Of a DNA stretch of 64,000 bases, positions 31,209 through 44,010 are shown piece after piece. Position 1 is the stretch's first letter. The number at the start of each line of letters is the position of its first letter. The translations under genes were made by a program, and so were the position numbers. Source of the DNA: Felixounavirus LF82P5; sequence record OZ035800.1; one strand, given 5' to 3'. Below the pieces are notes generated by a model, which was not told the DNA's origin, made no database searches, and worked only from the letters and a program-made list of their open reading frames with translations.

Positions 31209-31479
31209 AGAAAAGTGGGAGATTTTACCATTAGTCAGTGAAGGAGGTAATGGTTGTGAAATGTACATGATACGTGGTCATGTTCCAGAGCCAATTGCAC
31301 TTGAGATGGTAAACAACTTTACAGATGGTTCTTACAAAGACTTAGGCGAACCAACTGTCAAGCAACAATGGGTTAAACCTGTACCAGACAGCACAGGTAA
31401 CTGTAGTGTACTTTATCACGTTGTAGACCCTGCAAAATGCAAATCTGCAATGGCAGTAACAAACGTAACTTTTGATTGA
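31201..31479 (+). CDS. hypothetical protein
   Basis: 92-aa ORF. Confidence 0.4.
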   Translation: MAKEKWEILPLVSEGGNGCEMYMIRGHVPEPIALEMVNNFTDGSYKDLGEPTVKQQWVKPVPDSTGNCSVLYHVVDPAKCKSAMAVTNVTFD

Positions 31480-31490
31480 GAGAGAAAACT

Positions 31491-32372
31491 ATGAAAACAT
31501 CTATCCGTGTTACAGTTCATTCACCAACTAAAGGAACTCATGAAGAAGAGTTTAACATCATCCAATTTCCTTCTGGTGAGATTGGTGGACACTTTTCTCC
31601 AGAGTTTGTTGATTTCACTGCTTATGCAGCATCATCCATCAACAATGTGATTATGATTGTAAAAGGTTATGATAAGGATACATTGTTTGCTGTGGCACTT
31701 GCTAAAGAAGCAATTGATGATTTAATTCCTCATGATTATGCTTTAAAGACTGTCATCTTTTACTACTTACCAAATGCACGTTATGACCGTCACATGTTTA
31801 AAGGCGACGCAGCAGCTTTAAAGGTTTTTGCTAAACAGGTAAATGCAATGGGATTTGGTGCAGTCTGTGCAGTTGACCCTCACAGTTACGTTCCAGATAA
31901 CCTGTTTAACTGCTTCCAGAGTATTCCTCAAAAGGAGATTGCAGTTCACTACGCAAATGACCCACTGATTGATTACTTAGTAGCCCCAGATGCAGGTGCT
32001 GCTAAGAAGATTGCAGAGACTGCTAAAGAGGTGGATAAACCATACATCACAATGTCTAAGGTGCGTAACCTTAAGACTGGTGAAATTACTGGTATGCGAA
32101 TCCTTGACGATGTTGATTTGACAGATAAAACTGTCATGATTCTGGATGATATTTGTGATGGAGGTCGAACCTTCATAGAAGCAGCCAAACATCTTCGTGA
32201 AGCAGGTGCAAAACGTGTGGAACTCTATGTAACTCATGGTATTTTCTCTAAAGATGTTGAAAACTTGCTTGACAATGGTATTGACCATATCTACACTACA
32301 AACTCTTTAGGGGAAGCTAAAGACCGTGGCTTAACACATTATAGCCAAGTTACTGTAGCAAACCTTGATTAA
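31491..32372 (+). CDS. prs: ribose-phosphate pyrophosphokinase (PRPP synthetase)
   Basis: PRTase-type motif MILDDICDGGRT and VDPHS-type element; start moved to ATG with GAGAGAG Shine-Dalgarno. Confidence 0.65.
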   Translation: MKTSIRVTVHSPTKGTHEEEFNIIQFPSGEIGGHFSPEFVDFTAYAASSINNVIMIVKGYDKDTLFAVALAKEAIDDLIPHDYALKTVIFYYLPNARYDRHMFKGDAAALKVFAKQVNAMGFGAVCAVDPHSYVPDNLFNCFQSIPQKEIAVHYANDPLIDYLVAPDAGAAKKIAETAKEVDKPYITMSKVRNLKTGEITGMRILDDVDLTDKTVMILDDICDGGRTFIEAAKHLREAGAKRVELYVTHGIFSKDVENLLDNGIDHIYTTNSLGEAKDRGLTHYSQVTVANLD

Positions 32373-32381
32373 AACTTTATA

Positions 32382-32402
32382 GGGGCTTCCAAGCCCCATT
32401 TT
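32382..32402 (+). terminator. hairpin (weak terminator)
   Basis: GGGGCTT-CC-AAGCCCC hairpin followed by ATTTTG. Confidence 0.35.
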
Positions 32403-32417
32403 GAGAGAGATTAAAAG

Positions 32418-34199
32418 ATGACTAAATCACTTTATGCAGTACCAGCAGGTTTAAATGCAGATGCTTACAAATCTGGTCATGTTTACCAGTATCCTAGCGC
32501 AACAGAGTACTTGATGTTCAATCTGACACCACGTAGCGACAAATGGTTTAACAGCCCCTTAGCAATTGACGGTGTAGTGGCTTTTGGTATTCAACGTTTT
32601 GTTAAAGATTACTTGATAGACCACTGGAATGCCACTTTCTTTGAACGTGATAAAAAAGAAGCAATTGACGAAATCTTAGAAGTCATGAATGGTGTTCTGG
32701 GCAAAGATGCTATCGGTCGAGAGCATTGGGAAGCACTCCACGATTTAGGTTATCTACCAGTTGAAGTATATGCTGTAGAAGAAGGTACAGTTGTCCCGAT
32801 GCGTGTCCCAATGATTGTCTTCCAGAACACTGTTTCAGGCTTCCATTGGGTAGCAGGTTATCTGGAAGATGCTTTCTCTGCTGAGATTTGGAAGGCTTGC
32901 ACCATTGCGACTATTGCATTGCACTACAAACGTATATGTAAGAAGTGGGCTGACCTTACTTGTGACAATGACCTACATTTACCTTATCAGTGTCACGACT
33001 TTGCTATGCGTGGTATGTCCGGCTTTACTGATGACGCATTTAACGCTGTAGGTCACTTAACCAGCTTTAAAGGAACCGATAGCTTCCCTGCTGTATACAC
33101 GGCTAAACGCATCTATGGACAGTCTTACCCAATCTCTGATATTGGTAGTTCTGTACCAGCCACTGAACACTCTGTAATGTGTGCAAACATTGCTTGGGAA
33201 GGTGGTAATGAGTTGATTGAAGAAGAAAGACGCTTTAAAGGTGAGTTACAAACCTTCCGTCGTTTCTTAACAGAAACTTACCCAACAGGTATTGCAAGCA
33301 TTGTTTCAGATACTTATAACTTCTGGAGAACTGTGTCAGAAATCTTACCAGCACTTCGTAAAGAAATTATGGAACGTGATGGCAAACTGGTAATTCGCCC
33401 TGACTCTGGAGACCCTGTACATATTGTCACAGGTTATAAAGCAATCCACTTAGAATGTGCTAAGAAGGCTTATTACGAGCACCTAAGCAAGCTGGAAGCC
33501 AGTGACACAATGTTGAATGCTGTTCTGAACATGAAGCTTGAGAACATCAACTATGGTATTGCTGGATGGCTACTGTCAGAAGGCTACGAGATGGTTGTTG
33601 ACAGAGAAGACTTTGAAGTTGCTGATACAGTGATGTTGAAAAATGCTTATATGGTTGGTTCTGCAAACGTTGTAACACGTCCTGTAGCTGAGATTGATGG
33701 AGCTATTAAGACACTGTACAACATCTTTGGGGGAACTATTAACTCTAAAGGCTTTAAAGTACTGGATGAGCATATTGGACTTATTTATGGCGACTCTATC
33801 ACGTTGGAACGTGCAAATGAAATACTGAAGCGTTTGTATGAAATGGGTTTTGCAAGCTCTAACGTAGTGTTTGGTGTAGGTTCTTACACTTACCAGTACA
33901 TGACTCGTGACACCTTTGCATTTGCTGTCAAAGCAACCCTTGCAAGCATTGGTGGTAAAGAGATTATGCTTGCAAAAGACCCTAAAACAGATAGTGGTGT
34001 TAAGAAGTCTGCTTTTGGTGGTGTAGCACCTATGTGGGATGGTGAAAATCTGAAAGCTGTAGATGGCTATGGGTTCCAGAGCTTTGCAGATGCACTTGAA
34101 CATCCAGCTTGTGCTTTACGTCTAGTCTTTAGTGACTCTGAGCAGTTCGGCTACACAACTCTTGGTGATATTCGAAATAATATTGACAAGCAGCTTTAA
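32418..34199 (+). CDS. nadV: nicotinamide/nicotinate phosphoribosyltransferase family protein (NadV-like)
   Basis: N-terminal DAYKSGH motif typical of the NAPRTase/NAMPT family; sits next to prs. Confidence 0.6.
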   Translation: MTKSLYAVPAGLNADAYKSGHVYQYPSATEYLMFNLTPRSDKWFNSPLAIDGVVAFGIQRFVKDYLIDHWNATFFERDKKEAIDEILEVMNGVLGKDAIGREHWEALHDLGYLPVEVYAVEEGTVVPMRVPMIVFQNTVSGFHWVAGYLEDAFSAEIWKACTIATIALHYKRICKKWADLTCDNDLHLPYQCHDFAMRGMSGFTDDAFNAVGHLTSFKGTDSFPAVYTAKRIYGQSYPISDIGSSVPATEHSVMCANIAWEGGNELIEEERRFKGELQTFRRFLTETYPTGIASIVSDTYNFWRTVSEILPALRKEIMERDGKLVIRPDSGDPVHIVTGYKAIHLECAKKAYYEHLSKLEASDTMLNAVLNMKLENINYGIAGWLLSEGYEMVVDREDFEVADTVMLKNAYMVGSANVVTRPVAEIDGAIKTLYNIFGGTINSKGFKVLDEHIGLIYGDSITLERANEILKRLYEMGFASSNVVFGVGSYTYQYMTRDTFAFAVKATLASIGGKEIMLAKDPKTDSGVKKSAFGGVAPMWDGENLKAVDGYGFQSFADALEHPACALRLVFSDSEQFGYTTLGDIRNNIDKQL

Positions 34200-34213
34200 A
34201 AGTATATGATAAG

Positions 34214-34235
34214 AGGCTCCTACGGGAGCCTTTTT
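34214..34235 (+). terminator. rho-independent terminator
   Basis: AGGCTCC-TACG-GGAGCCT hairpin followed by a T run. Confidence 0.6.
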
Positions 34236-34252
34236 AATTTCTGGAGAAAACT

Positions 34253-34588
34253 ATGAAAATCAAAGAGATGAACATCAACATTGTCTTAGAAGAACGTTGG
34301 GAGAACATCAAGAAGCCTGAAGATGGCCATAAGTTTCTTAACAAAATTTTAGTAGCAGCTAAAGAAGAACTGACTGGCAAGGTCGCAGCAGCAATTACAA
34401 TAAAGGTCTGTGTAAAAGGTCTTCCAGATAATCACCAATTTGCACTTGACGAGTTTAAAGAAAGCTTCTACAATCCAAACAAACAGATGCTTGAAAGTAA
34501 CTTTGCAGTATCTACAAGTATCGTCCATGACAGAAGCTTTATCCTTTACAAGAATATGAGAGGTGAGTCATGCAAGCATATTGGATAG
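34253..34588 (+). CDS. hypothetical protein
   Basis: 111-aa ORF. Confidence 0.45.
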   Translation: MKIKEMNINIVLEERWENIKKPEDGHKFLNKILVAAKEELTGKVAAAITIKVCVKGLPDNHQFALDEFKESFYNPNKQMLESNFAVSTSIVHDRSFILYKNMRGESCKHIG

Positions 34589-34746
34589 AAATTTTACTGT
34601 CACTTGGTGGCGTAGCAGTGTTTGTTTACCTTCTTTGTAAGTACTATGCAGAGCACAAAAAATGTGACTACTGTAATGGGGAAGGTTATACAAGAGCAGG
34701 TTGTTGCCCTATGTGTGGTGGTTCTGGTAAAATGTTTAACAAGTAA
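34570..34746 (+). CDS. small membrane-anchored zinc-ribbon protein
   Basis: 58-codon ORF (below track cutoff): hydrophobic helix then CDYCNGEGY...CPMCGGSG. Confidence 0.3.
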   Translation: MQAYWIEILLSLGGVAVFVYLLCKYYAEHKKCDYCNGEGYTRAGCCPMCGGSGKMFNK

Positions 34747-34774
34747 TTTAACAGTAAACTAAGAGGAAAGTATT

Positions 34775-37141
34775 ATGCGCATGGTAAACGACCACGCAGA
34801 AGTGATTAAGAGTTCAACTTCTTTAGAGACGTCTCAAGCACAGATTACAATGACACCTGAAATGTTCAGCCTTTTGAGTTCTGGTGTATATACCTTTAAA
34901 GAAAGGGCAGTGATTCGTGAACTGTCATGTAACGCAGTAGATGCTCAGAAAGAGGCTGGAAAAGAGAACATCCCGTTCCATGTGCATTTGCCTACTCGTT
35001 TTGAGCCTTACTTTGAAGTTCGTGATTTTGGAACTGGATTAACTCATGACAAAGTTATGAGCTTGTACCTAAACTACGGGGCTTCTACAAAGAATGACTC
35101 CAATGACTACATTGGTGCAATGGGTATCGGCTCAAAGTCACCATTTGCAATTGCTCAGTCATTCACAGTATCTAGCTATGTTGATGGTGTTGTTAATAAG
35201 TACTCTGTTTACCTTGAGAATGGTATCCCTCAAGTAACTAAGCTGACAACTAACCCAACAAAAGAACCTAATGGTTTAGCTGTACGTGTGGCAGTTGCTG
35301 ACCACCGTATCTCAAAGTTCTTTGAAGAGGCTGGTCACGTATACTCATACTTTGCTGTAAAACCAGAGAGTAATGTGGAGTATAATGATATATTAGCAGA
35401 TATGGATGTGATTGCTCGTGAAGAAGGTGTCTATGATGCCATGACTCATAAGCATAGCTGGCGTTCAAGCAGCAATAGAACAGAGTTTAACGTGGTTATG
35501 GGTAATATTGCCTACCCAGTTAATATGGAGGCATTACTTGGTGATGATTTCTTCAAAGTATTACCAGAATTTTTCCGCAGGAGCATAGACCTTGTAAACA
35601 TCTACATGCCTATTGGTTCAGTTGCTATTGCAGCTTCTCGTGAAGCATTGCAGATGAATGACACGACAAAAAATGTTATCATCGAGGCTACTAAAAAGAT
35701 AACTGAAGCAATTACAAAGGATGTTATCAAGAAAGTTAATAGTCAACCTACACTCATGGATGCTGCACAGGCTTATGCTGAGTTACGCTTAAACTCACGA
35801 GAGATGTTTAATGTTGTGTGTCCAAAGCTAGAGTGGGGAGGTGTTAAGCTTGATTCTCTGGAAGAAGAATTACTAAACATTCGTCGTGGAATTATCTACG
35901 CAGAAGACGGCTCAGTCATTTATGAACGTGACGGCAAAGGCAATATTAAGGTTGATAGGAACGGGAACAATATTCCTAAAGTAGATTATCTTTATGACCC
36001 AGTTGCTTATGTCAAATTCAACTCTTTAGAGAGTAAGATTCGTGCAACATCGCTTTCCTACACTCAAGAGGCAAGCATGTTCAATATCTTTGGCGCAATG
36101 CGTAAAAGCCAAATTGAACAGTTTTTGTTTGTTATAAATGACCGTCGCAATAAAAACGGTACTGAGAAGACTGTAGGACGCAATCAAATCTTGCGTGGTG
36201 CATGTCGAGACTATGCCAGTGAGTCTAGTCTGTTTCACAGATACAATGGTATTGTATTTGTATTCTCGACTGAAAAAGAGCTAGATGACTTAGTCAATCT
36301 ACACAAACTTGATAAAAGCTTGTTAAAGATTGTGAAGATGTCTGAGAAGGAACACCATTATCAGCGTAAAGAAGCTGTAAGAGGTGTTGTAAAACTCTGG
36401 AAAGCTGTTCCAGCAGAAGGTGTAGCTTCCTATAAAGAGGTTTCAGAGGACTTTGATACAATTGAAGAGCCTCAGCTTTACATTAAGGCAGTTGGTGATA
36501 CAGTTGATGGTAGATGTTTTTGCTCATCTCCAGAAGATGTAGCTAAGTCAGTTGCTAATGTTACAGGTAAGACAGTCTATGTTTTCCGAAAAGCAAATTG
36601 GAAAAAGATACCAGAAGATTGGATTGAAGTAGATGAGAAACTCTTGAACGACAGCTTAACTGATGTTCACTGGATTAACCATAACAGATATATGACGCGT
36701 ATCTATATGAATGGTGTCCTTGACCTTACAAGCAGTTGGATTATTGCCAGAAACTTTACGTTTAATAACAGGAAGATTTCTCGCGGGTATTGTTATTCAA
36801 GGGATACTATTAAGACAATCTTCTTAGAAGGGAATGAAGATGCTGTTGAGGCAATGTTTGGTAAGATTCAGTATGTGGCTGCACCGTTTGCATACACTTA
36901 CACTATCAGTGTTCTTCAGGATTTGAAGTCATGCCTTGATAATGACACAAAACTGTACAAAAAGATTAAGAAAGCAGGTGACCGCATGGTTATCAAGCTG
37001 ACAAACTATCTTTCAAAAAGAAAACAAGAAAACTTCTTGCTTTCACACTTAGATTGGAATAAAGTATCACCTATCGAAGTGAGTAAGTTTTTAGGCTTTG
37101 ATGTGAAGTGTGTTCCAGAAGGGACTACAATTTACGATTAA
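34775..37141 (+). CDS. rIIA: rIIA-like protein with GHKL-type ATPase domain
   Basis: 788 aa; Bergerat-fold motifs N-box ELSCNAVDA, G1 DFGTGL, G2 GAMGIGSKS at the N-terminus; followed by an rIIB-sized gene. Confidence 0.55.
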   Translation: MRMVNDHAEVIKSSTSLETSQAQITMTPEMFSLLSSGVYTFKERAVIRELSCNAVDAQKEAGKENIPFHVHLPTRFEPYFEVRDFGTGLTHDKVMSLYLNYGASTKNDSNDYIGAMGIGSKSPFAIAQSFTVSSYVDGVVNKYSVYLENGIPQVTKLTTNPTKEPNGLAVRVAVADHRISKFFEEAGHVYSYFAVKPESNVEYNDILADMDVIAREEGVYDAMTHKHSWRSSSNRTEFNVVMGNIAYPVNMEALLGDDFFKVLPEFFRRSIDLVNIYMPIGSVAIAASREALQMNDTTKNVIIEATKKITEAITKDVIKKVNSQPTLMDAAQAYAELRLNSREMFNVVCPKLEWGGVKLDSLEEELLNIRRGIIYAEDGSVIYERDGKGNIKVDRNGNNIPKVDYLYDPVAYVKFNSLESKIRATSLSYTQEASMFNIFGAMRKSQIEQFLFVINDRRNKNGTEKTVGRNQILRGACRDYASESSLFHRYNGIVFVFSTEKELDDLVNLHKLDKSLLKIVKMSEKEHHYQRKEAVRGVVKLWKAVPAEGVASYKEVSEDFDTIEEPQLYIKAVGDTVDGRCFCSSPEDVAKSVANVTGKTVYVFRKANWKKIPEDWIEVDEKLLNDSLTDVHWINHNRYMTRIYMNGVLDLTSSWIIARNFTFNNRKISRGYCYSRDTIKTIFLEGNEDAVEAMFGKIQYVAAPFAYTYTISVLQDLKSCLDNDTKLYKKIKKAGDRMVIKLTNYLSKRKQENFLLSHLDWNKVSPIEVSKFLGFDVKCVPEGTTIYD

Positions 37142-37220
37142 AGTGTTTGACAAGGGGCTTCAAAGCCCCTTAGAATAGCCTCACAAATTGATTGATTAAC
37201 TAACAAGAGAGAGTAATAAG

Positions 37221-38330
37221 ATGACTACTAAAACTAAAGCACAGATTGACGCAGAAATTTACAAACTGGTTAAAGAAGGTAAGCTGACCAAAACAGCTAT
37301 TGCACAGAAATTTAACACTTCAACCCGTTCAGTTGGTCGTGCTGTAGAGCGTCATGAAGCAACCTTAAAAGGGAAGAAGAAGGTGACTTCTACACCAGCT
37401 ACGAAGACTTTGAAGCAAGTTGCTAAGACTTTTAAAAAGAAAGCTGGCAAACCAGTTGAAAAGGTCGTTAAAGACGCTGTACAGAAAGCTCCAGTAAATA
37501 AACTGCACGAAGCTATGCAGAAAGATGACAAGATTGAGTACATGATTACTGGTGATTCTGTAATTATGACTTATGGTTCAGAATCTGAAATTGTTGAGTC
37601 TACTCATCCGAACTATCAAGAGATTGTAGTTCATGTTGTGAAAGGTGAGTTCAAGAAAGCATTTGAACTGATGAACATTCGTAAGTCTATCGAAAACTTC
37701 ACTCAGGGTGCTATCACAATCAAAGGCGACAAGCTATTCTACGGTGCTGTTGAGATGCGTTCTACTCTGGTTGACCGTATTCTTCACATGATGAAAACTG
37801 GCGATAAAGGTTTTGAACGACTTGTAATGTTCTTCGAAAAACTGATGGAAAACCCATCTAAAGATTCTGTAGAACAACTTTGGGGATTTGTATCTCACCT
37901 TGATGTTGAAATTGATGAAGAAGGCTACATCATTGGTTGGAAGAAAGTCTCTACTCGTGAAGGCAAGCTGGTTGACTCTCACACCTACAAAGTGCCTAAT
38001 GATTTGGGTAACATTGTAGAAATGCCACGTTGGATGGTTGATAATAACCGTAACGTAACTTGCTCTCAAGGTCTTCATGTTGGTGCTTGGGATTATGTTC
38101 GTTGCTTCTCAGGTGATACAATCCTGAAGGTTCGCGTACATCCACGAGATGTTGTATCTGTTCCAACTGATTACAACGATATGAAGATGCGTTCCTCTCG
38201 TTATGAAGTTGCAGCAATCGTTGATAATCAACGTAAAGTGCTGGAAGCATGGGACGGTAAGACTGAAGCTTTGCATGTCATCGTTGGCACTGCTGGTGAA
38301 CTCATCTCTCAACGTAAACGTGAAATCTAA
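37221..38330 (+). CDS. rIIB: rIIB-like protein
   Basis: 369 aa directly downstream of the rIIA-like gene; N-terminal HTH-like segment and Lys-rich linker; assignment by context. Confidence 0.45.
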   Translation: MTTKTKAQIDAEIYKLVKEGKLTKTAIAQKFNTSTRSVGRAVERHEATLKGKKKVTSTPATKTLKQVAKTFKKKAGKPVEKVVKDAVQKAPVNKLHEAMQKDDKIEYMITGDSVIMTYGSESEIVESTHPNYQEIVVHVVKGEFKKAFELMNIRKSIENFTQGAITIKGDKLFYGAVEMRSTLVDRILHMMKTGDKGFERLVMFFEKLMENPSKDSVEQLWGFVSHLDVEIDEEGYIIGWKKVSTREGKLVDSHTYKVPNDLGNIVEMPRWMVDNNRNVTCSQGLHVGAWDYVRCFSGDTILKVRVHPRDVVSVPTDYNDMKMRSSRYEVAAIVDNQRKVLEAWDGKTEALHVIVGTAGELISQRKREI

Positions 38331-38345
38331 TAAGTAATTTCTTAA

Positions 38346-38368
38346 AAGGCTGCTTCGGCGGCCTTTTT
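38346..38368 (+). terminator. rho-independent terminator
   Basis: GGCTGC-TTCG-GCGGCC hairpin followed by TTTTTT. Confidence 0.55.
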
Positions 38369-38370
38369 TA

Positions 38371-38398
38371 TTTGTATTTTGTGCAGAGTGCTGTATAA
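38371..38398 (+). promoter_or_regulatory. sigma70-like promoter
   Basis: Perfect -10 TATAAT with a weak -35; the spacer contains the TTGTGCAG motif also found in the 42540-42719 repeats. Confidence 0.4.
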
Positions 38399-38430
38399 TT
38401 GTTGTCACGATAAACTAAACAGGAGAACCA

Positions 38431-38979
38431 ATGAAGAAATTGATTCTAGGTTTGTGCTTAATGTTTACAGCACACTTATCTTATGCAGTTGACTGCCCAG
38501 AGCTATCAATTAGCCAAAAAGTGAACATGTTAAAAGCTTACCAGTATGGTGAGAATAACATGGGTAAAGGTTGGGGTATCACTCTAGCAGCTATAGCCTT
38601 ACAAGAGTCAGAGTTAGGTCTGAAGGTAGAAAATAAAAAGACCCATGACTATGGTATCTTCCAGAATCACTTGAAGACTGTTGTAAAGCGTAACAAAATT
38701 AGTCCTAATGTTGCTAAAAAGAAACTCTTAAAAGACTTTGACTATGCTGCGAAGGAAACTCACAAAGAGCTTGAGTTTTGGACAAAGGTGCATGGTCAGC
38801 CAAAGTCAAAGAAGACTTTACAAAAAGTTTTAGCATCATATAATGCTGGGTATTCGTACAGAATCCCTAAAGCTAAGAAATATTCTCAAGATGTCTATAA
38901 CAACATGAAAGTTATTGCTCAATGTGAATTTGCAACAAACATTTCTAAGGTAAACCATGAAAAAATTAAAAAAGTCTGA
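38431..38979 (+). CDS. secreted lytic transglycosylase-like protein
   Basis: Signal peptide MKKLILGLCLMFTAHLSYA; SLT-like catalytic segment ALQESELG...YGIFQN. Confidence 0.5.
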   Translation: MKKLILGLCLMFTAHLSYAVDCPELSISQKVNMLKAYQYGENNMGKGWGITLAAIALQESELGLKVENKKTHDYGIFQNHLKTVVKRNKISPNVAKKKLLKDFDYAAKETHKELEFWTKVHGQPKSKKTLQKVLASYNAGYSYRIPKAKKYSQDVYNNMKVIAQCEFATNISKVNHEKIKKV

Positions 38980-39652
38980 TGAAGTACTGTGTCATGCTTA
39001 CGACTTACATCCTCATGAGTTAGGTCTTGATTCCTGTGTATGGACTCCAGAACAGTGTAGGGATTTTGAAGACACTGCAAGAGAAGTTGTATGTTCACTC
39101 GAAGAGTTCCACACATCAGAACCAATTGTGAATGTTGTAGATAAAGAGACTGGACAAACTATAGGTGTAAGTCGTGATAGCTTAGTCATAGTCAATAAAG
39201 ACCTTGTAGAAAAAGGGAATCTCATCTTAGCAGATATTGATGGTGTTCTTACAAATTTTAATCACGAAGATTGTTCAACGGAATTGACTGACGGTTCATT
39301 CTCGCAGTACACTAATCTTCTTGACTCTGTAAGAGCAAAACCAACGTATGTTTTCAATATCATTGATGCAATTGCTAATCATGCTGCTGTTGGACTCTTG
39401 ACAGCGAGAGGTGAATCTCAGAGAATACCTACTGAGATGTTTTTAAGGCATAACACAGAGCATGACTACATGCTTTTTATGCGTGGTTTTGGGACTAACT
39501 CTATAAGCGCAGAAAGTTTGAAAGTGAGGATGATTCAGTCTTGCATTCTGCCTTACTTTAATATAGTATGTTTTATAGAAGACACAGAGAAGAATGTGCA
39601 GAAGGTGAACAGAATCCTTCCACACATTAAAACCATGTTAGTTAAACATTGA
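38957..39652 (+). CDS. HAD-superfamily phosphatase (5'-nucleotidase-like)
   Basis: HAD motif I LILADIDGVLTNF (DxDGxL). Confidence 0.4.
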   Translation: MKKLKKSDEVLCHAYDLHPHELGLDSCVWTPEQCRDFEDTAREVVCSLEEFHTSEPIVNVVDKETGQTIGVSRDSLVIVNKDLVEKGNLILADIDGVLTNFNHEDCSTELTDGSFSQYTNLLDSVRAKPTYVFNIIDAIANHAAVGLLTARGESQRIPTEMFLRHNTEHDYMLFMRGFGTNSISAESLKVRMIQSCILPYFNIVCFIEDTEKNVQKVNRILPHIKTMLVKH

Positions 39653-39662
39653 GAGAAAACTT

Positions 39663-40127
39663 ATGAACAATATCATTACGGTAGCACTGGACGATACGGT
39701 AAACAAATCTGCAATAGTTCGTAAAATGATTCAAGGTAACTTTGAAGGTAAAATTTTTCGTGCTGTTAATGTAAAAGCTGATGGCAGCATTCGTGAATAT
39801 CGTGCATTATTGAATGTTAAAAAACACGTAAAAGGTGCTGGTTCAACTACTGCACACAAAGAAAACCTGATGACTATCTATGATATGGGCAAGGCTTCAG
39901 AGTTAGGTGCTGAAGGTATCGTTAAAGAAGGTGCTCCGTATCGCTCTTTCAATCTGGAAACTACTCTTATGCTTTCCTTTACAAGTGGTTCTAAAACAAT
40001 CACTTATCTCTTTACTGATGCTGCAACGGTATCTGCTATTAAGGATAGCACTGTCAAAGCTGGCGTAGTTGCTGCTGCAAAAGCTTCTTCGATGGCTGCG
40101 AATATCCTTGCTAAAGTCCTCGGTTAA
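39663..40127 (+). CDS. hypothetical protein
   Basis: 154-aa Ala/Lys-rich ORF followed by a terminator. Confidence 0.45.
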   Translation: MNNIITVALDDTVNKSAIVRKMIQGNFEGKIFRAVNVKADGSIREYRALLNVKKHVKGAGSTTAHKENLMTIYDMGKASELGAEGIVKEGAPYRSFNLETTLMLSFTSGSKTITYLFTDAATVSAIKDSTVKAGVVAAAKASSMAANILAKVLG

Positions 40128-40138
40128 GGTTAAGATAC

Positions 40139-40160
40139 AGGCTCCTTCGGGAGCCTTTTT
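40139..40160 (+). terminator. rho-independent terminator
   Basis: AGGCTCC-TTCG-GGAGCCT hairpin followed by TTTTT. Confidence 0.65.
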
Positions 40161-40179
40161 CATTTTAGGAGATTGTTAA

Positions 40180-40527
40180 ATGACATTTAAAGAGTTCTGT
40201 CAAGCTACTTTCATAATTGTTTTCTTAGTTGGTGCAGGTGTCTGGGGAGGATACTCTTACAGAGACTATCAAGTTGCTGAAACTGAGCTAAATAATGAGA
40301 AACTAATAAGTGTTGCTAAAGATGCTTATCAGGAAGGTTTAGCCACACTCAGCACCAATTACAAAAATGATTTGAAAGATGTGCTTGCTAAGAATAAGCA
40401 TACAAAAGAGGTACTAACATATGAAAAAACTAAGCCAGAGTTTTATAATGTTTGTGTTACTGATAACTATGTCAGGGTGTTCAACGAACAAAGTGAGCAG
40501 TACATTCAAAAACTCCCAAGTAAGTGA
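40180..40527 (+). CDS. i-spanin-like protein
   Basis: 115 aa: N-terminal TM helix then charged periplasmic-type region; a lipoprotein ORF overlaps its 3' end in another frame. Confidence 0.35.
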   Translation: MTFKEFCQATFIIVFLVGAGVWGGYSYRDYQVAETELNNEKLISVAKDAYQEGLATLSTNYKNDLKDVLAKNKHTKEVLTYEKTKPEFYNVCVTDNYVRVFNEQSEQYIQKLPSK

Positions 40528-40690
40528 GGGTGATAAGTACACCCAAGAAGAATCACGGTATATCATCAAAGGCAACACAGGCAGCGATGTAGCAGCAGCC
40601 CTTGAGTTCTATCGTGACGGCTTTTACCAGTGCACAATCAAAGCTAACAACCTTATTGACATGATTTTATTAGGGAATAAGCAGCAATGA
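40421..40690 (+). CDS. o-spanin-like lipoprotein
   Basis: Signal plus lipobox LLITMSGC; ATG with AGAGG Shine-Dalgarno; overlaps 40180..40527 by about 107 nt. Confidence 0.35.
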   Translation: MKKLSQSFIMFVLLITMSGCSTNKVSSTFKNSQVSEGDKYTQEESRYIIKGNTGSDVAAALEFYRDGFYQCTIKANNLIDMILLGNKQQ

Positions 40691-40956
40691 CAGAGAATCA
40701 AGATACTTTTTACGTAGAAGGGTACTTACTGTTACCACGACCAAAAGAGACTTATATGCGAATTGATTTCTCACCAACCATTATGGATAATGTGATGTGC
40801 CATATCTTTATGCAAGGTGTCACAGCACAGCTTAAACATGTTGGTAAAGAGTGCAAAATAAAGGTTGACACTCATCCAGAAATCAAAGAGAATCACTACA
40901 CATGGTTCTTACCAGATTCTAAAGAAATCTTAGCAGTTCTTAAAACGAGGAAGTAA
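40687..40956 (+). CDS. hypothetical protein
   Basis: 89-aa ORF. Confidence 0.4.
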   Translation: MTENQDTFYVEGYLLLPRPKETYMRIDFSPTIMDNVMCHIFMQGVTAQLKHVGKECKIKVDTHPEIKENHYTWFLPDSKEILAVLKTRK

Positions 40957-40958
40957 CT

Positions 40959-41285
40959 ATGCAGATTAATGGAAGAGACTTTGTAGCCGTTTACTATGAG
41001 AAAGGTAAAGAAGTTGGCGTAGCACAAGTATCTTACGGCAATGGTAAGTGGCTATATGGAACAATCGCAGTAGTAGGAACAAGAAGTGATACAAAAACCT
41101 TTAAAGATTGTGTTGACCTTCTTGAAGAATCCATCCAGAATCATTGGTGTCTGATATGGATGACTGATAACGAAGTGATGGAGCGTTTCAAAAAGATTGA
41201 TATCAACATTGACAGTATTGAGCATGTTGATTTATATGAACTAACTGAGAAGGTAAACTATGAAAGTAATACTAGCCAGAGATAA
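40959..41285 (+). CDS. hypothetical protein
   Basis: 108-aa ORF. Confidence 0.4.
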   Translation: MQINGRDFVAVYYEKGKEVGVAQVSYGNGKWLYGTIAVVGTRSDTKTFKDCVDLLEESIQNHWCLIWMTDNEVMERFKKIDINIDSIEHVDLYELTEKVNYESNTSQR

Positions 41286-41487
41286 AAAGACACGAAAACT
41301 TATAAGGTCAGCAGTATTCATTGGACGAAATGAGGTCATCCCATTTACAGCAAATGATGTGATAGCTTACAGGAAGAACTTAGTATTCACTGACTGCTTA
41401 CGTGGCTTCATCTCTGAACCATTGGAAGACTTTAAAAGTCGTTGTGGTAAAGGTATCATCATTCAAGAGGCAATTATTCATGGCTGA
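41260..41487 (+). CDS. hypothetical protein
   Basis: 75-aa ORF. Confidence 0.35.
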   Translation: MKVILARDKKTRKLIRSAVFIGRNEVIPFTANDVIAYRKNLVFTDCLRGFISEPLEDFKSRCGKGIIIQEAIIHG

Positions 41488-41680
41488 CTTCTGTAAAGAC
41501 TGTTCTATCGAAATGTTCGGACGTGATACAGGTGACTTAAAAGGTCTTATCACTGAAGATGATTTTAAAGCTGGTTATGCAATGCCAGTAATCTGTGAAG
41601 GTTGTGGGTGCATCTGGGTAGACCATGAGGGGCAACGTGTAAAACCTTCAGAAGATAAAGAATCTTGGGAGAGATGCTAA
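41480..41680 (+). CDS. small zinc-binding protein
   Basis: Track ORF trimmed to internal ATG; cysteine pairs CKDC...CEGCGC. Confidence 0.35.
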   Translation: MADFCKDCSIEMFGRDTGDLKGLITEDDFKAGYAMPVICEGCGCIWVDHEGQRVKPSEDKESWERC

Positions 41681-42466
41681 ATGGGTATTGTAAAAATCAT
41701 CAATGGTGATATCTTTGCTGCATTTGATAAAGGTAAGTTTGACATCATTGGTCATGGTTGTAACTGCATGAACCTAATGGGCGCAGGTATCGCTGACAAG
41801 ATTTCTAAACTTTACCCAAAAGCATATGAGACCGATACAGAAGTTTATCTCTATGCAGGTGGTATAGGTCACAAACCCTGTGAGAATTTACTAGGTAATT
41901 TCTCTGTAGCACGCTTAAAACAAGGTCGTATAGCTAACCTTTACACTCAGCTTAAGACTGGTAAAGATGCCCGATACAGTGCTTTAGAGTCATCTTTGAA
42001 ACAGCTTAACAGATACTGTGAAGTTAATCAGTTGAAGAAAGTTGGTTTACCTATGATTGGTGCAGGTATCGGTGGACTTGACCCTCAAGCCATCACAGTT
42101 ATCATCAATCAGGTGATGAAGAGTGTAGATGTTTATCTGTATGTCTATGAAGGCGAGATGTACCACAAGTTACGCTCAGGTTGGAAGAACTACTGTGAAC
42201 CAGAATACTTTGCAGGTGTAGCAGTGTTCACAGATAACGCAGTTACCCTCTTCAGACGAAGAAAAGGTAAGATACATCAAAGTAACCCTCCGGTTGAAAA
42301 GATGTCTCTAAGTAACGCTCTAGTTACCCACCTGTCAAAGAGCAATCACAGAATTGCTGTAACATTTGGTAGTGATGCAGAAGCTTATATCTATGCAAGA
42401 ACTGATGAGGATATCGAGGCAATCTTCTCTTCACCAGAAGTTACCTTCTTAGACGCAAAGAACTAA
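41681..42466 (+). CDS. macro-domain protein (putative ADP-ribose-binding/hydrolase)
   Basis: N-terminal GDI...DII.HGCNCMNLMGAGIA and GLPMIGAGIGGL resemble macro-domain signatures (GDIT...VNAAN.LLGGGGV; FPAISTGVYG). Confidence 0.45.
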   Translation: MGIVKIINGDIFAAFDKGKFDIIGHGCNCMNLMGAGIADKISKLYPKAYETDTEVYLYAGGIGHKPCENLLGNFSVARLKQGRIANLYTQLKTGKDARYSALESSLKQLNRYCEVNQLKKVGLPMIGAGIGGLDPQAITVIINQVMKSVDVYLYVYEGEMYHKLRSGWKNYCEPEYFAGVAVFTDNAVTLFRRRKGKIHQSNPPVEKMSLSNALVTHLSKSNHRIAVTFGSDAEAYIYARTDEDIEAIFSSPEVTFLDAKN

Positions 42467-42539
42467 GAAACTCTGTAGGATATTCACAATAGCCTAAGCC
42501 TTTCTTATCTGGTAAATTTTTCAGGTAAGGAGGGCTTTT

Positions 42540-42561
42540 TCATTTTAGAATTGTGCAGGTA
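42540..42561 (+). repeat. iteron-like direct repeat R1
   Basis: TCATTTTAGAATTGTGCAGGTA; identical to R4. Confidence 0.6.
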
Positions 42562-42612
42562 GAGTTCTGTAGAGAAATCTGTAGAGAGAATTTTGAACTC
42601 CAAAGAGAAAAT

Positions 42613-42634
42613 TCATTTTCAAACTGTGCAGGTA
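42613..42634 (+). repeat. iteron-like direct repeat R2
   Basis: TCATTTTCAAACTGTGCAGGTA. Confidence 0.6.
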
Positions 42635-42651
42635 ATCTCCAAAGAGCTTTT

Positions 42652-42673
42652 TCATTTTCAAAACGTGCAGACC
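42652..42673 (+). repeat. iteron-like direct repeat R3
   Basis: TCATTTTCAAAACGTGCAGACC. Confidence 0.55.
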
Positions 42674-42696
42674 CCGCTCAGGTCGGGCAAGAAAAA

Positions 42697-42718
42697 TCAT
42701 TTTAGAATTGTGCAGGTA
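42697..42718 (+). repeat. iteron-like direct repeat R4
   Basis: TCATTTTAGAATTGTGCAGGTA. Confidence 0.6.
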
Positions 42719-42733
42719 GGTTTTTATAGACAG

Positions 42734-42772
42734 CCAGCCCAACCCCTCTCCCCCTCTTACTCCCCCTCTCCC
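42734..42772 (+). other. polypyrimidine (C-rich) tract
   Basis: CCAGCCCAACCCCTCTCCCCCTCTTACTCCCCCTCTCCCC, strongly out of character for a roughly 39% GC genome. Confidence 0.6.
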
Positions 42773-42894
42773 CAAAAGTCAAGAGAAAAATTTGTAGCGG
42801 ATTGAAAAATAATTCTTGATTTGCGTTCTGTTTTGTGGTAGTCGTGCGCACCCGTTTCATTACAGTTTTGCCAAAAATATTTTTAAAATTTTTA

Positions 42895-42986
42895 TTGACT
42901 CTTTGAACGTGGTTATCTAATATTTACATCAACGGGGAGGGAATGACCTTCCCCACTAAATAAAATCCTAAACTGGAGATTCAAAA
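42895..42986 (+). promoter_or_regulatory. promoter-hairpin-RBS cassette, copy 1
   Basis: TTGACT-17 nt-TAATAT, then GGGGAGGGAATGACCTTCCCC hairpin, then ...CCTAAACTGGAGATTCAAAA-ATG. Confidence 0.6.
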
Positions 42987-43175
42987 ATGGCATCAAGAAA
43001 AATTAAAGTTGGCGATGAGGTTAACATTAAGCACGAATACTCTTACAAAATGCTAACTATACGCTCTTATAAGGTTTATCAGGTGGAAGCTATCCACAAA
43101 GATAATACTTTTTCCTTAAAAGGGTATAGCGAACGTTTCCCTGCTGAACTCTTTGAGAAATGGAGCGCGAAATAA
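42987..43175 (+). CDS. hypothetical small protein
   Basis: 62-aa ORF driven by cassette copy 1. Confidence 0.5.
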   Translation: MASRKIKVGDEVNIKHEYSYKMLTIRSYKVYQVEAIHKDNTFSLKGYSERFPAELFEKWSAK

Positions 43176-43381
43176 TGCTTTACAGTCGCGAATTGATGGT
43201 TACAACTAACGTTAACACAAAGGCAAAACGTTTTTACATGCAAATCTGTGGCGTATGGTCCAGAATATCAGAAGCTGACTATTGCAACTATGTAGAAACA
43301 GCTATAAACTCTAATTGCTACCTTACAAGAAATACTAAAAAATTTACGAGACAGACAGCAATTTACTACTACGATAAATAA
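43175..43381 (+). CDS. hypothetical small protein
   Basis: Start at ATG overlapping the upstream stop (TAATG); 68 aa. Confidence 0.4.
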   Translation: MLYSRELMVTTNVNTKAKRFYMQICGVWSRISEADYCNYVETAINSNCYLTRNTKKFTRQTAIYYYDK

Positions 43382-43395
43382 AAAGTACTTTACAA

Positions 43396-43424
43396 GGGGC
43401 TTATAGTTCGATAAAGTAAGCCCC
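43396..43424 (+). other. intergenic hairpin upstream of conserved leader
   Basis: GGGGCTTA-13 nt-TAAGCCCC then the conserved leader ...CCTTAAACTAGGAGATTCAAAA-ATG; no T run. Confidence 0.4.
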
Positions 43425-43467
43425 AGATAAAGAGCTTTACACAATCCTTAAACTAGGAGATTCAAAA

Positions 43468-44010
43468 ATGAAATGCTATCACGGAACTACTCAAGAAAAT
43501 TTCCTCAACCTGATTAATAACGGTGATAAACCATCAGGCGCATGGAATTGTTCGGATATGGACGGCAATTTTTACGTGTATCCAGAAAATAAAATCTATG
43601 GCGACGATGAGGAAGAAATAGCATCAGAGGGCATTCAGCAAGCTCTAGGCAATGCCACTATCACCGCAGCTTTTCAGATGAAGACTCAAAATATTGTTAT
43701 CTTAGAACTCGATATTCCAGAGGATGAGCTAAATGATGATTATTCTTGTGATAATATGTCGAGTGTAGCAAGTTTTACAGAGTACTTTGATGTAAATTGG
43801 ATTAAAAAGGTCTATACAACAGAGTTTAACGCTATGTATTCACCTTTTTGTCTTCCTTCATTGGATAACCCAAATTTAAACTATCTTGATGAGTCTCTGG
43901 AGCTTCTTGCTAAAAGTGTTCAACAGTCGGACAGTATTCAGGTTTATTGTGACATCATGGATACACTGACAGGAAACATTGCAGAAGAGGATTTAAAGAG
44001 CTTTTTCTAA
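43468..44010 (+). CDS. hypothetical protein
   Basis: 180-aa acidic ORF with conserved leader and RBS. Confidence 0.5.
   Translation: MKCYHGTTQENFLNLINNGDKPSGAWNCSDMDGNFYVYPENKIYGDDEEEIASEGIQQALGNATITAAFQMKTQNIVILELDIPEDELNDDYSCDNMSSVASFTEYFDVNWIKKVYTTEFNAMYSPFCLPSLDNPNLNYLDESLELLAKSVQQSDSIQVYCDIMDTLTGNIAEEDLKSFF

Follow-up and report, generated by a model that had tools for sequence, protein, structure and literature searches.

A gene directly upstream of a set of direct repeats in a Felix O1-like myovirus encodes a protein of two domains, the first of them a macrodomain. The locus raises the question of whether this product counters a host defense, which defense that would be, and what the second domain contributes. 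An earlier note, made from the DNA letters, had put the protein forward as a candidate anti-defense factor. Homology supports that proposal, as two relatives, T4 Tk.4 (AdfM) and the Adpp of Vibrio phage Gary, have experimental counter-defense roles. The gene was analyzed within a 64,000-nucleotide stretch of phage DNA (the window). Its region 41000-43500 has an exact counterpart in Felixounavirus LF82P5 (100% identity), and numerous Felixounavirus genomes of Escherichia, Salmonella, and Shigella match the region at 91 to 99% identity. The macro protein itself is 100% identical to the LF82P5 copy, and copies of 95 to 99% identity were found in more than 100 Felixounavirus genomes. Features of the locus are collected in Table 1.

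Table 1. Positions in the window of the macro gene, its domains, the surrounding signals, and the NARP1 genes
Feature	Position	Strand	Basis or remark
Two-domain macro protein CDS	41681..42466	+	ATG start, complete, 261 aa; ORF list
N-terminal macrodomain, residues 1-157, Poa1p/TARG1/DarG class	41681..42151	+	Pfam, DarG models, Foldseek, alignment
C-terminal orphan domain, residues 158-261	42152..42463	+	Predicted: one helix, six beta strands, C-terminal helix
Shine-Dalgarno-like GGGAGAG	41667..41673	+	7 nt before ATG; read from sequence
Intrinsic-terminator-like hairpin	42496..42537	+	17 pairs plus T run; terminator scan
Direct repeats, 4 copies of ~22-34 nt, core TCATTTTnnAAnTGTGCAGGTA	42540-42730		Directly after terminator
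C/T-rich tract CCCCTCTCCCCCTCTTACTCCCCCTCTCCCC	~42743-42773		3' of repeats
Promoter-like TTGACT-17-TAATAT	42895-42923		Precedes next gene
Adps-like (Pribosyltran/Pribosyl_synth)	31476..32372	+	NARP1 gene; Pfam
Namat-like (NAPRTase/NAMPT_N)	32418..34199	+	NARP1 gene; Pfam

The domain assignment is already known rather than new, because the gene goes by "putative phosphatase," "macro domain-containing protein," "Poa1p_like family," or "ymdB" in public records of relatives. A match to PHROG 335 ("phosphatase") extends over residues 1-260 (E = 5.5e-113). Both macro-domain-like signatures named in the earlier note can be read in the translated sequence, GDIF...DIIGHGCNCMNLMGAGIA spanning residues 9-38 and GLPMIGAGIGGL spanning residues 122-133. 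The match to Pfam Macro PF01661 covers residues 25-138 (E = 3.9e-7) and, at 30.5 bits, exceeds the curated cut-off of 22 bits. The same Pfam family has a precomputed match on all two-domain homologues. When the PDB was searched with the single sequence, TARG1/OARD1, SARS-CoV-2 Mac1, DarG macrodomains, and Poa1p were recovered; with a family profile, the matches were to TARG1 (1.7e-11), Mycobacterium tuberculosis (Mtb) DarG (3.2e-9), Thermus DarG (2.2e-7), and Poa1p (6.9e-5). The PADLOC and NCBIfam models of DarG gave E-values of 9.8e-13 and 2.4e-12, respectively, and both cover the macro part only. The macro fold on which the earlier note had staked its reading was thus found by Pfam, the PDB family profile, PHROG, and the DarG models alike.

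An AlphaFold2 model of the whole protein, computed from an alignment of 15 family members, reached a pLDDT of 84.6 and a pTM of 0.84. In a Foldseek search with this predicted structure, the best matches were TARG1 (TM 0.80-0.83 on target), Thermus DarG, alphavirus and coronavirus macrodomains, and Poa1p, with a probability of 1.00 against TARG1, DarG, Poa1p, and viral macrodomains. As modeled, the protein contains the three-layer alpha/beta/alpha macro fold.

With regard to genomic setting, the TAA of an upstream 66-aa ORF (41678-41680) abuts the ATG of the macro gene (TAAATG), an arrangement that suggests translational coupling of the two. Downstream, the macro gene is followed by a strong terminator-like hairpin, by repeats, and then by a promoter-like site before the next gene; it therefore reads as the last gene of a rightward early block that begins upstream of rIIA/rIIB, with the hairpin closing the unit. 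A terminator is annotated at the position equivalent to this hairpin in phage ASO1A, and the annotation of a curated relative agrees with this reading. The earlier note had likewise described the gene as the last before an "iteron region," its name for the repeats. The four repeat copies begin at 42540, 42613, 42652, and 42697, with spacings of 73, 39, and 45 nt. A megablast query containing the repeat region matched 3 to 6 places per related genome, and repeat-like sequence may recur elsewhere in these genomes.

Other ORFs of this part of the window were also surveyed. The 66-aa ORF (41480-41680) is Cys-rich and zinc-ribbon-like (CKDC...CEGCGC), and it is 100% conserved in the metagenomic relative L007 despite the divergent macro allele there. 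In relative L004, its position is taken by a different CxxC...CxxC protein, and in relative L006 by an unrelated protein. Given this lack of conservation in L004 and L006, a conserved small upstream partner gene was rejected. The stretch from rIIB to the macro gene contains an SLT-like "lysin" ORF (38431..38979) and a PNK/HAD-like ORF (38957..39652), and the overlapping ORFs 40180..40527 and 40421..40690 are annotated as i-spanin and o-spanin in phage ekra; lysis-type genes (38431-40690) are thus found inside the early-looking block. A 175-aa ORF on the minus strand within the Namat-like gene (33576-34103) is probably a chance ORF.

The Gly-rich ADP-ribose-binding loops of the macrodomain, MGAGIA (33-38) and IGAGIGG (126-132), vary little or not at all among the 15 family members. 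Family-invariant positions in the macrodomain comprise H25, N28, the MGAGIA loop, NLYTQ (86-90), and a P-x-IGAGIxGLD loop (124-134) in which G131 is variable. Invariant down to two-domain homologues of 33% identity are H25, N28, M33-G34-A35-G36, N86-L87-Y88-T89-Q90, P124, and I126-G127-A128-G129-I130. In the profile alignment with TARG1, Q90 lies opposite the catalytic K84 and G131 opposite D125; in a BLAST alignment with PhiKZ AdfM, N28 lies opposite N23 and Q90 opposite K78, the lysine of FPTK. No conserved Lys was found near Q90 in the family alignment. Because Q90 and G131 occupy the positions of TARG1 K84 and D125, the macro protein lacks the TARG1/DarG Lys/Asp pair and has instead the His/Asn/Gln set (H25, N28, Q90) of the phage Poa1p-like radiation, which includes T4 Tk.4. 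Neither outcome that the earlier note had named as a refutation, a missing macro fold or lost catalytic residues, was observed: the phage-family set is conserved, although the Lys and Asp of the TARG1/DarG type are absent.

That note had also divided the protein into an N-terminal macrodomain and a C-terminal extension, a split that holds at about 157 aa and about 105 aa. No Pfam, PADLOC, or PDB sequence match was obtained for the C-terminal domain, and relatives in sequence or fold outside the fusion family were not found. Its pLDDT is mostly 75 to 90 in the full-length model and 77.6 when it is modeled alone; the pTM of the whole-protein model suggests a fixed packing against the macrodomain. 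Only P174, G179, and Y236 are invariant or nearly so in this domain, which argues against a second active site. The C-terminal domain evolves at two to three times the rate of the macrodomain, with identities (C-terminal versus macro) of 54% versus 81% in homologue P0002 and 19% versus 53% in homologue P0009.

Several candidate origins or roles of the C-terminal domain were considered and rejected. An HMM search of 1.84 billion cluster representatives for stand-alone or differently fused copies returned the fusion family only; one apparent stand-alone copy (P0032, 114 aa) is a fragment that starts inside the macrodomain, and long multi-stretch matches to the C-terminal HMM are repeat proteins, e.g., beta-propellers. 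Comparison with T4 Tk.1-3, Vs, and Vs.1 and with the other ORFs of the window gave nothing better than E = 0.89. A generic nucleic-acid binder was dismissed on charge, as the pI of the domain ranges from 4.6 to 9.5 across the family with no consistent basic charge.

The window also carries NARP1. Its Adps-like and Namat-like genes, located immediately before rIIA, correspond to Bas63 genes 79-80; the Bas63 genes have been shown experimentally to constitute NARP1 NAD+ reconstitution, and they are the prototype in which NARP1 was first recognized. From the end of NARP1 at 34199 to the start of the macro gene at 41681, on the same strand, is a distance of 7.5 kb with about 14 genes in between (rIIA, rIIB, and about 12 more ORFs), and the macro gene is not within two genes of NARP1 in the window. 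The order Adps-Namat-rIIA-rIIB-...-macro is kept in the distant metagenomic relatives L006 and L007, whose macro proteins are 33 to 41% identical. In Vibrio phage Gary, the Poa1p-like macro protein Adpp is encoded within the NARP1 operon (bioRxiv 10.64898/2026.01.28.702374). The NAD+ phosphorylase aRES yields ADPR-1''-phosphate, which purified Gary Adpp turns into ADPR, so that NARP1 rebuilds NAD+, and the three-gene operon (NARP1-AP) overrides aRES; H24 is the residue of Gary Adpp mutated for inactivation (10.64898/2026.01.28.702374). The survey for Adpp in that work covered two genes on either side of NARP1, and its Table S1 holds no Escherichia or Salmonella phage (10.64898/2026.01.28.702374). 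Because only these neighbors were scanned, the macro gene would have been missed. The macro protein is an end-to-end homologue of Gary Adpp at 27% identity (E = 2e-13), and its H25 aligns with H24. With the NARP1-linked macro proteins of Pseudomonas Pakpunaviruses, identity is 34 to 35%, equal to that with T4 Tk.4.

In T4 and phiD1, tk.4 adjoins vs. T4 tk.4 was the single significant hit in a transposon-library screen on a DarTG2 host (HIDEN-SEQ preprint, 10.1101/2025.11.20.689424). A clean tk.4 knockout made T4 sensitive to DarTG2, and the authors, whose evidence is genetic only, named the product AdfM (anti-DarT factor Macrodomain) and proposed that it removes ADP-ribose from DNA (10.1101/2025.11.20.689424). 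The alignment of the macro protein with T4 Tk.4 takes in the full macrodomain (residues 3-157 versus 2-152; 35% identity, E = 2e-24). Its motifs are of the Tk.4 type (HGCNC, NLYTQ, no insertion after Gln), whereas most NARP1-linked Adpp proteins have HQ(C/A)NC, NxYGQ, and an insertion of 5 to 8 residues after Gln. The protein scored 148 bits with a Tk.4-like HMM and 107 bits with an Adpp HMM, although the Tk.4-like set was picked by similarity to the query and is hence biased. In a neighbor-joining (NJ) tree with 200 bootstraps, the two-domain family was monophyletic in 160 of 200 replicates; monophyly of this family with the Tk.4 group was recovered in 17 of 200, and Tk.4-like and Adpp sequences interleave. 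Motifs and loop length thus favor the Tk.4 type, while the NJ tree is compatible with more than one place for the family relative to the Tk.4 and Adpp groups.

Comparison within the genus uncovered a second form of the gene. Upstream of the gene, L007 DNA matches the window at 96% identity for 9.5 kb (31702-41266), and downstream it does so at 97% (42652-42906). In the L007 macro gene, nucleotide similarity to the window is absent from roughly codon 48 through the last codon, and the protein is 41% identical. A 75-aa ORF (41260..41487) also falls in the stretch of no nucleotide similarity, which spans L007 9567-10900 against window 41267-42518. The L007-type macro allele is present at at least 95% identity in 13 sequenced Felixounavirus genomes (BPS17L1, Si3, finno, ECML-1, phiWec172, and others); beyond these, the next-best matches are at 42%, with none between 42% and 95%. 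By this comparison, the genus has two deeply divergent macro alleles at one locus on a near-identical backbone. Such a pattern would fit replacement by horizontal transfer with diversifying selection at work, which is often seen at counter-defense loci. Two records titled as VpaE1 derivatives differ as well: LR597658.1 (VpaE1_ev108) has the main allele (98% nucleotide identity), and LR699048.1 (VpaE1_ev035) the BPS17L1 type (95.7% amino acid identity), which suggests recombination at the macro locus between co-cultured phages.

Taking these data together, we consider it probable that the macro protein is an ADP-ribose C1''-hydrolase used against host immunity. It would be an early-expressed enzyme whose N-terminal macrodomain binds ADP-ribose and cleaves the C1'' substituent of the distal ribose; beyond the observations themselves, we infer its substrate, which defense system it counters, and what the C-terminal domain does, if anything. 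The more specific reading that we prefer, an AdfM-like enzyme directed at DarTG2, is put forward tentatively, as a call that falls slightly short of even. Host DarT2 places ADP-ribose on thymidines of single-stranded phage DNA, and the macro protein, like T4 Tk.4, would strip this ADP-ribose so that replication continues in DarTG2 hosts. On this reading, the C-terminal domain would serve as an accessory module, quick to evolve, for binding a partner or substrate, rather than as a second catalytic center. Homology to Tk.4, the motifs, the matches to DarG models and to TARG1 and DarG structures, the equivalence of N28 with PhiKZ N23, the occurrence of DarTG2 in E. coli (e.g., EPEC), and the allelic replacement, which an arms race would be expected to produce, all argue for an anti-DarTG2 role. 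Arguing against it would be Q90 and G131, the tree placement, an identity to the Pakpunavirus proteins equal to that with Tk.4, the biased HMM set, and the phage's own NARP1; given the Lys-to-Gln (Q90) and Asp-to-Gly (G131) changes, DNA de-ADP-ribosylation would need a different chemistry. In the literature, no paper was found that tests DarTG or aRES against a Felixounavirus.

The presence of NARP1 directs attention to another substrate. If the macro protein were an Adpp encoded away from its operon, that is, an ADPR-1''-phosphate phosphatase, then the ADPR that it makes from the aRES product would feed the phage's own NARP1 and extend it to NARP1-AP. The domain is Poa1p-like and so annotated in relatives, Gary Adpp is an end-to-end homologue whose catalytic His is the invariant H25, and the Gary enzyme performs this conversion in an operon that beats aRES, which occurs in E. 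coli, Klebsiella, and Enterobacter. NARP1, functional in the congener Bas63, shares strand and early block with the macro gene in relatives down to 33% identity, and the range of the published survey was too narrow to catch a gene so placed. We nevertheless regard this, the main rival, as rather unlikely: the gene sits far outside the operon, beyond rIIA/rIIB, its conserved order may come from common descent of the whole lineage rather than from functional linkage, and its motifs and loop length are those of Tk.4. T4 keeps a macro protein of this type and is not known to carry NARP1; if it carries none, the subtype does not need NARP1. Where the earlier note had proposed reversal of host ADP-ribosylation, that mechanism stands as one well-supported possibility, but dephosphorylation of a small molecule, ADPR-1''-phosphate, is a second. 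A single enzyme of broad specificity might also cleave both phosphate and thymine-N3 from C1'' and so counter aRES and DarTG2 alike. Both leaving groups sit on one carbon, and AdfM-type and Adpp-type proteins intermingle in one radiation with an equal invariant His/Asn/Gln set. TARG1, the best PDB match, acts on several ADP-ribose conjugates. Motif differences and one divergent loop separate the AdfM group from the Adpp group, however, which suggests specialization, and dual function seems to us improbable. The chance is small that the protein has some other ADP-ribose role with no specific link to DarTG2 or aRES, whether degrading or sequestering ADPR-derived immune signals, removing ADP-ribosylation from protein or RNA, or clearing by-products of RNA repair or NARP1 (ADPR-cyclic-phosphate/ADPR-1P). 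One survey, of viral NAD+/ADPr systems, made the case that most macro domains of phages target small derivatives of ADPr, ADPR-cyclic phosphate is a breakdown product of ADPR-PP in Bas63 infections, and a PNK-like gene lies 2 kb upstream; against such a role, the two nearest characterized relatives act against DarTG2 and aRES. Finally, the missing TARG1-type Lys/Asp and the modest single-sequence Pfam E-value would be expected if the macro match were spurious or the domain catalytically dead and a binding module only. This we consider very improbable, since profile, four independent libraries, and structure model agree, H25, N28, Q90, and the two Gly-rich loops stay unchanged even in members of just 33% identity, and functional relatives keep these residues (all of them in T4 Tk.4; His, Asn, and Gln in Gary Adpp).

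The C-terminal domain invites a bolder proposal, which we offer as a long shot: it would be a second, non-catalytic counter-defense module that binds and blocks DarT2 or a RES NADase, or that docks the enzyme on modified ssDNA. Such a module would amount to a convergent, DarG-like "erase and sequester" arrangement with an unrelated fold, and the two alleles would be specificity variants for host effector variants.

What is new at this locus is the orphan C-terminal domain, its faster evolution, and two 41%-identical alleles on 96%-identical backbones. Counter-defense by phage macrodomains was shown experimentally only in 2025-2026, for AdfM and Adpp. Felix O1-like phages are widely used in therapy and biocontrol against E. 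coli and Salmonella, and the ADP-ribose defenses that they can neutralize bear on host range. The macro protein is a convenient test case, as its sequence falls between the AdfM and Adpp groups and it co-occurs with NARP1 without linkage; the extra domain and the two divergent natural alleles could reveal what sets specificity. Should it prove to be an Adpp unlinked to NARP1, surveys limited to NARP1 neighbors would be undercounting NARP1-AP. The overall picture of macrodomain function is unchanged by this protein.

Among known systems, T4 Tk.4 shares with the macro protein HGCNC, MGxG(I/V)A, NLYTQ, an equal loop length, the P-x-IGAGIG loop, and the Q90/G131-type lack of Lys and Asp, and both are early non-structural genes of virulent enterobacterial myoviruses; Tk.4 differs in that it consists of one 155-aa domain and lacks the C-terminal one. 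Gary Adpp belongs to the same phage Poa1p-like macro radiation and has in common the catalytic His, the Asn, Gln at the Lys position, the Gly-rich loops, and NARP1 in the genome. It differs in its HQCNC and NVYGQ motifs, in a longer loop after Gln, in its position inside the NARP1 operon, and in being a single domain of 158 aa. PhiKZ gp104 (AdfM) strips DarT2-made ADP-ribose from an oligonucleotide in vitro and neutralizes DarT2 toxicity, and mutation of its N23 lowers ADP-ribose removal from DNA (Cell Rep 2026, PMC13309987). It is a more distant, DarG-type macro protein, only 22% identical to the one described here, in which N23 corresponds to N28; DarG2 and PhiKZ AdfM both carry the catalytic Lys of FPTK where Q90 stands here. 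With DarG, the macro protein shares the macro fold, and DarG HMMs match its macro part at E of about 1e-12, but the full-length NCBIfam equivalog NF048014 scores 46.8 bits against a cut-off of 250 and aligns over profile positions 4-154 of 338 only. The PADLOC and NCBIfam models gave no match to the DarT-binding domain of DarG in the C-terminal domain, and no DarT toxin gene is adjacent, the flanks being the Cys-rich ORF and the terminator with its repeats, in the genome of a virulent phage. TARG1/OARD1 is the best PDB match by sequence profile and by fold and differs at K84 and D125, and Poa1p matches in sequence and fold, the sequence match being confined to the first 60 profile residues. 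By these comparisons, the macro protein belongs to a known class, the phage macrodomain counter-defense enzymes, with a variant architecture.
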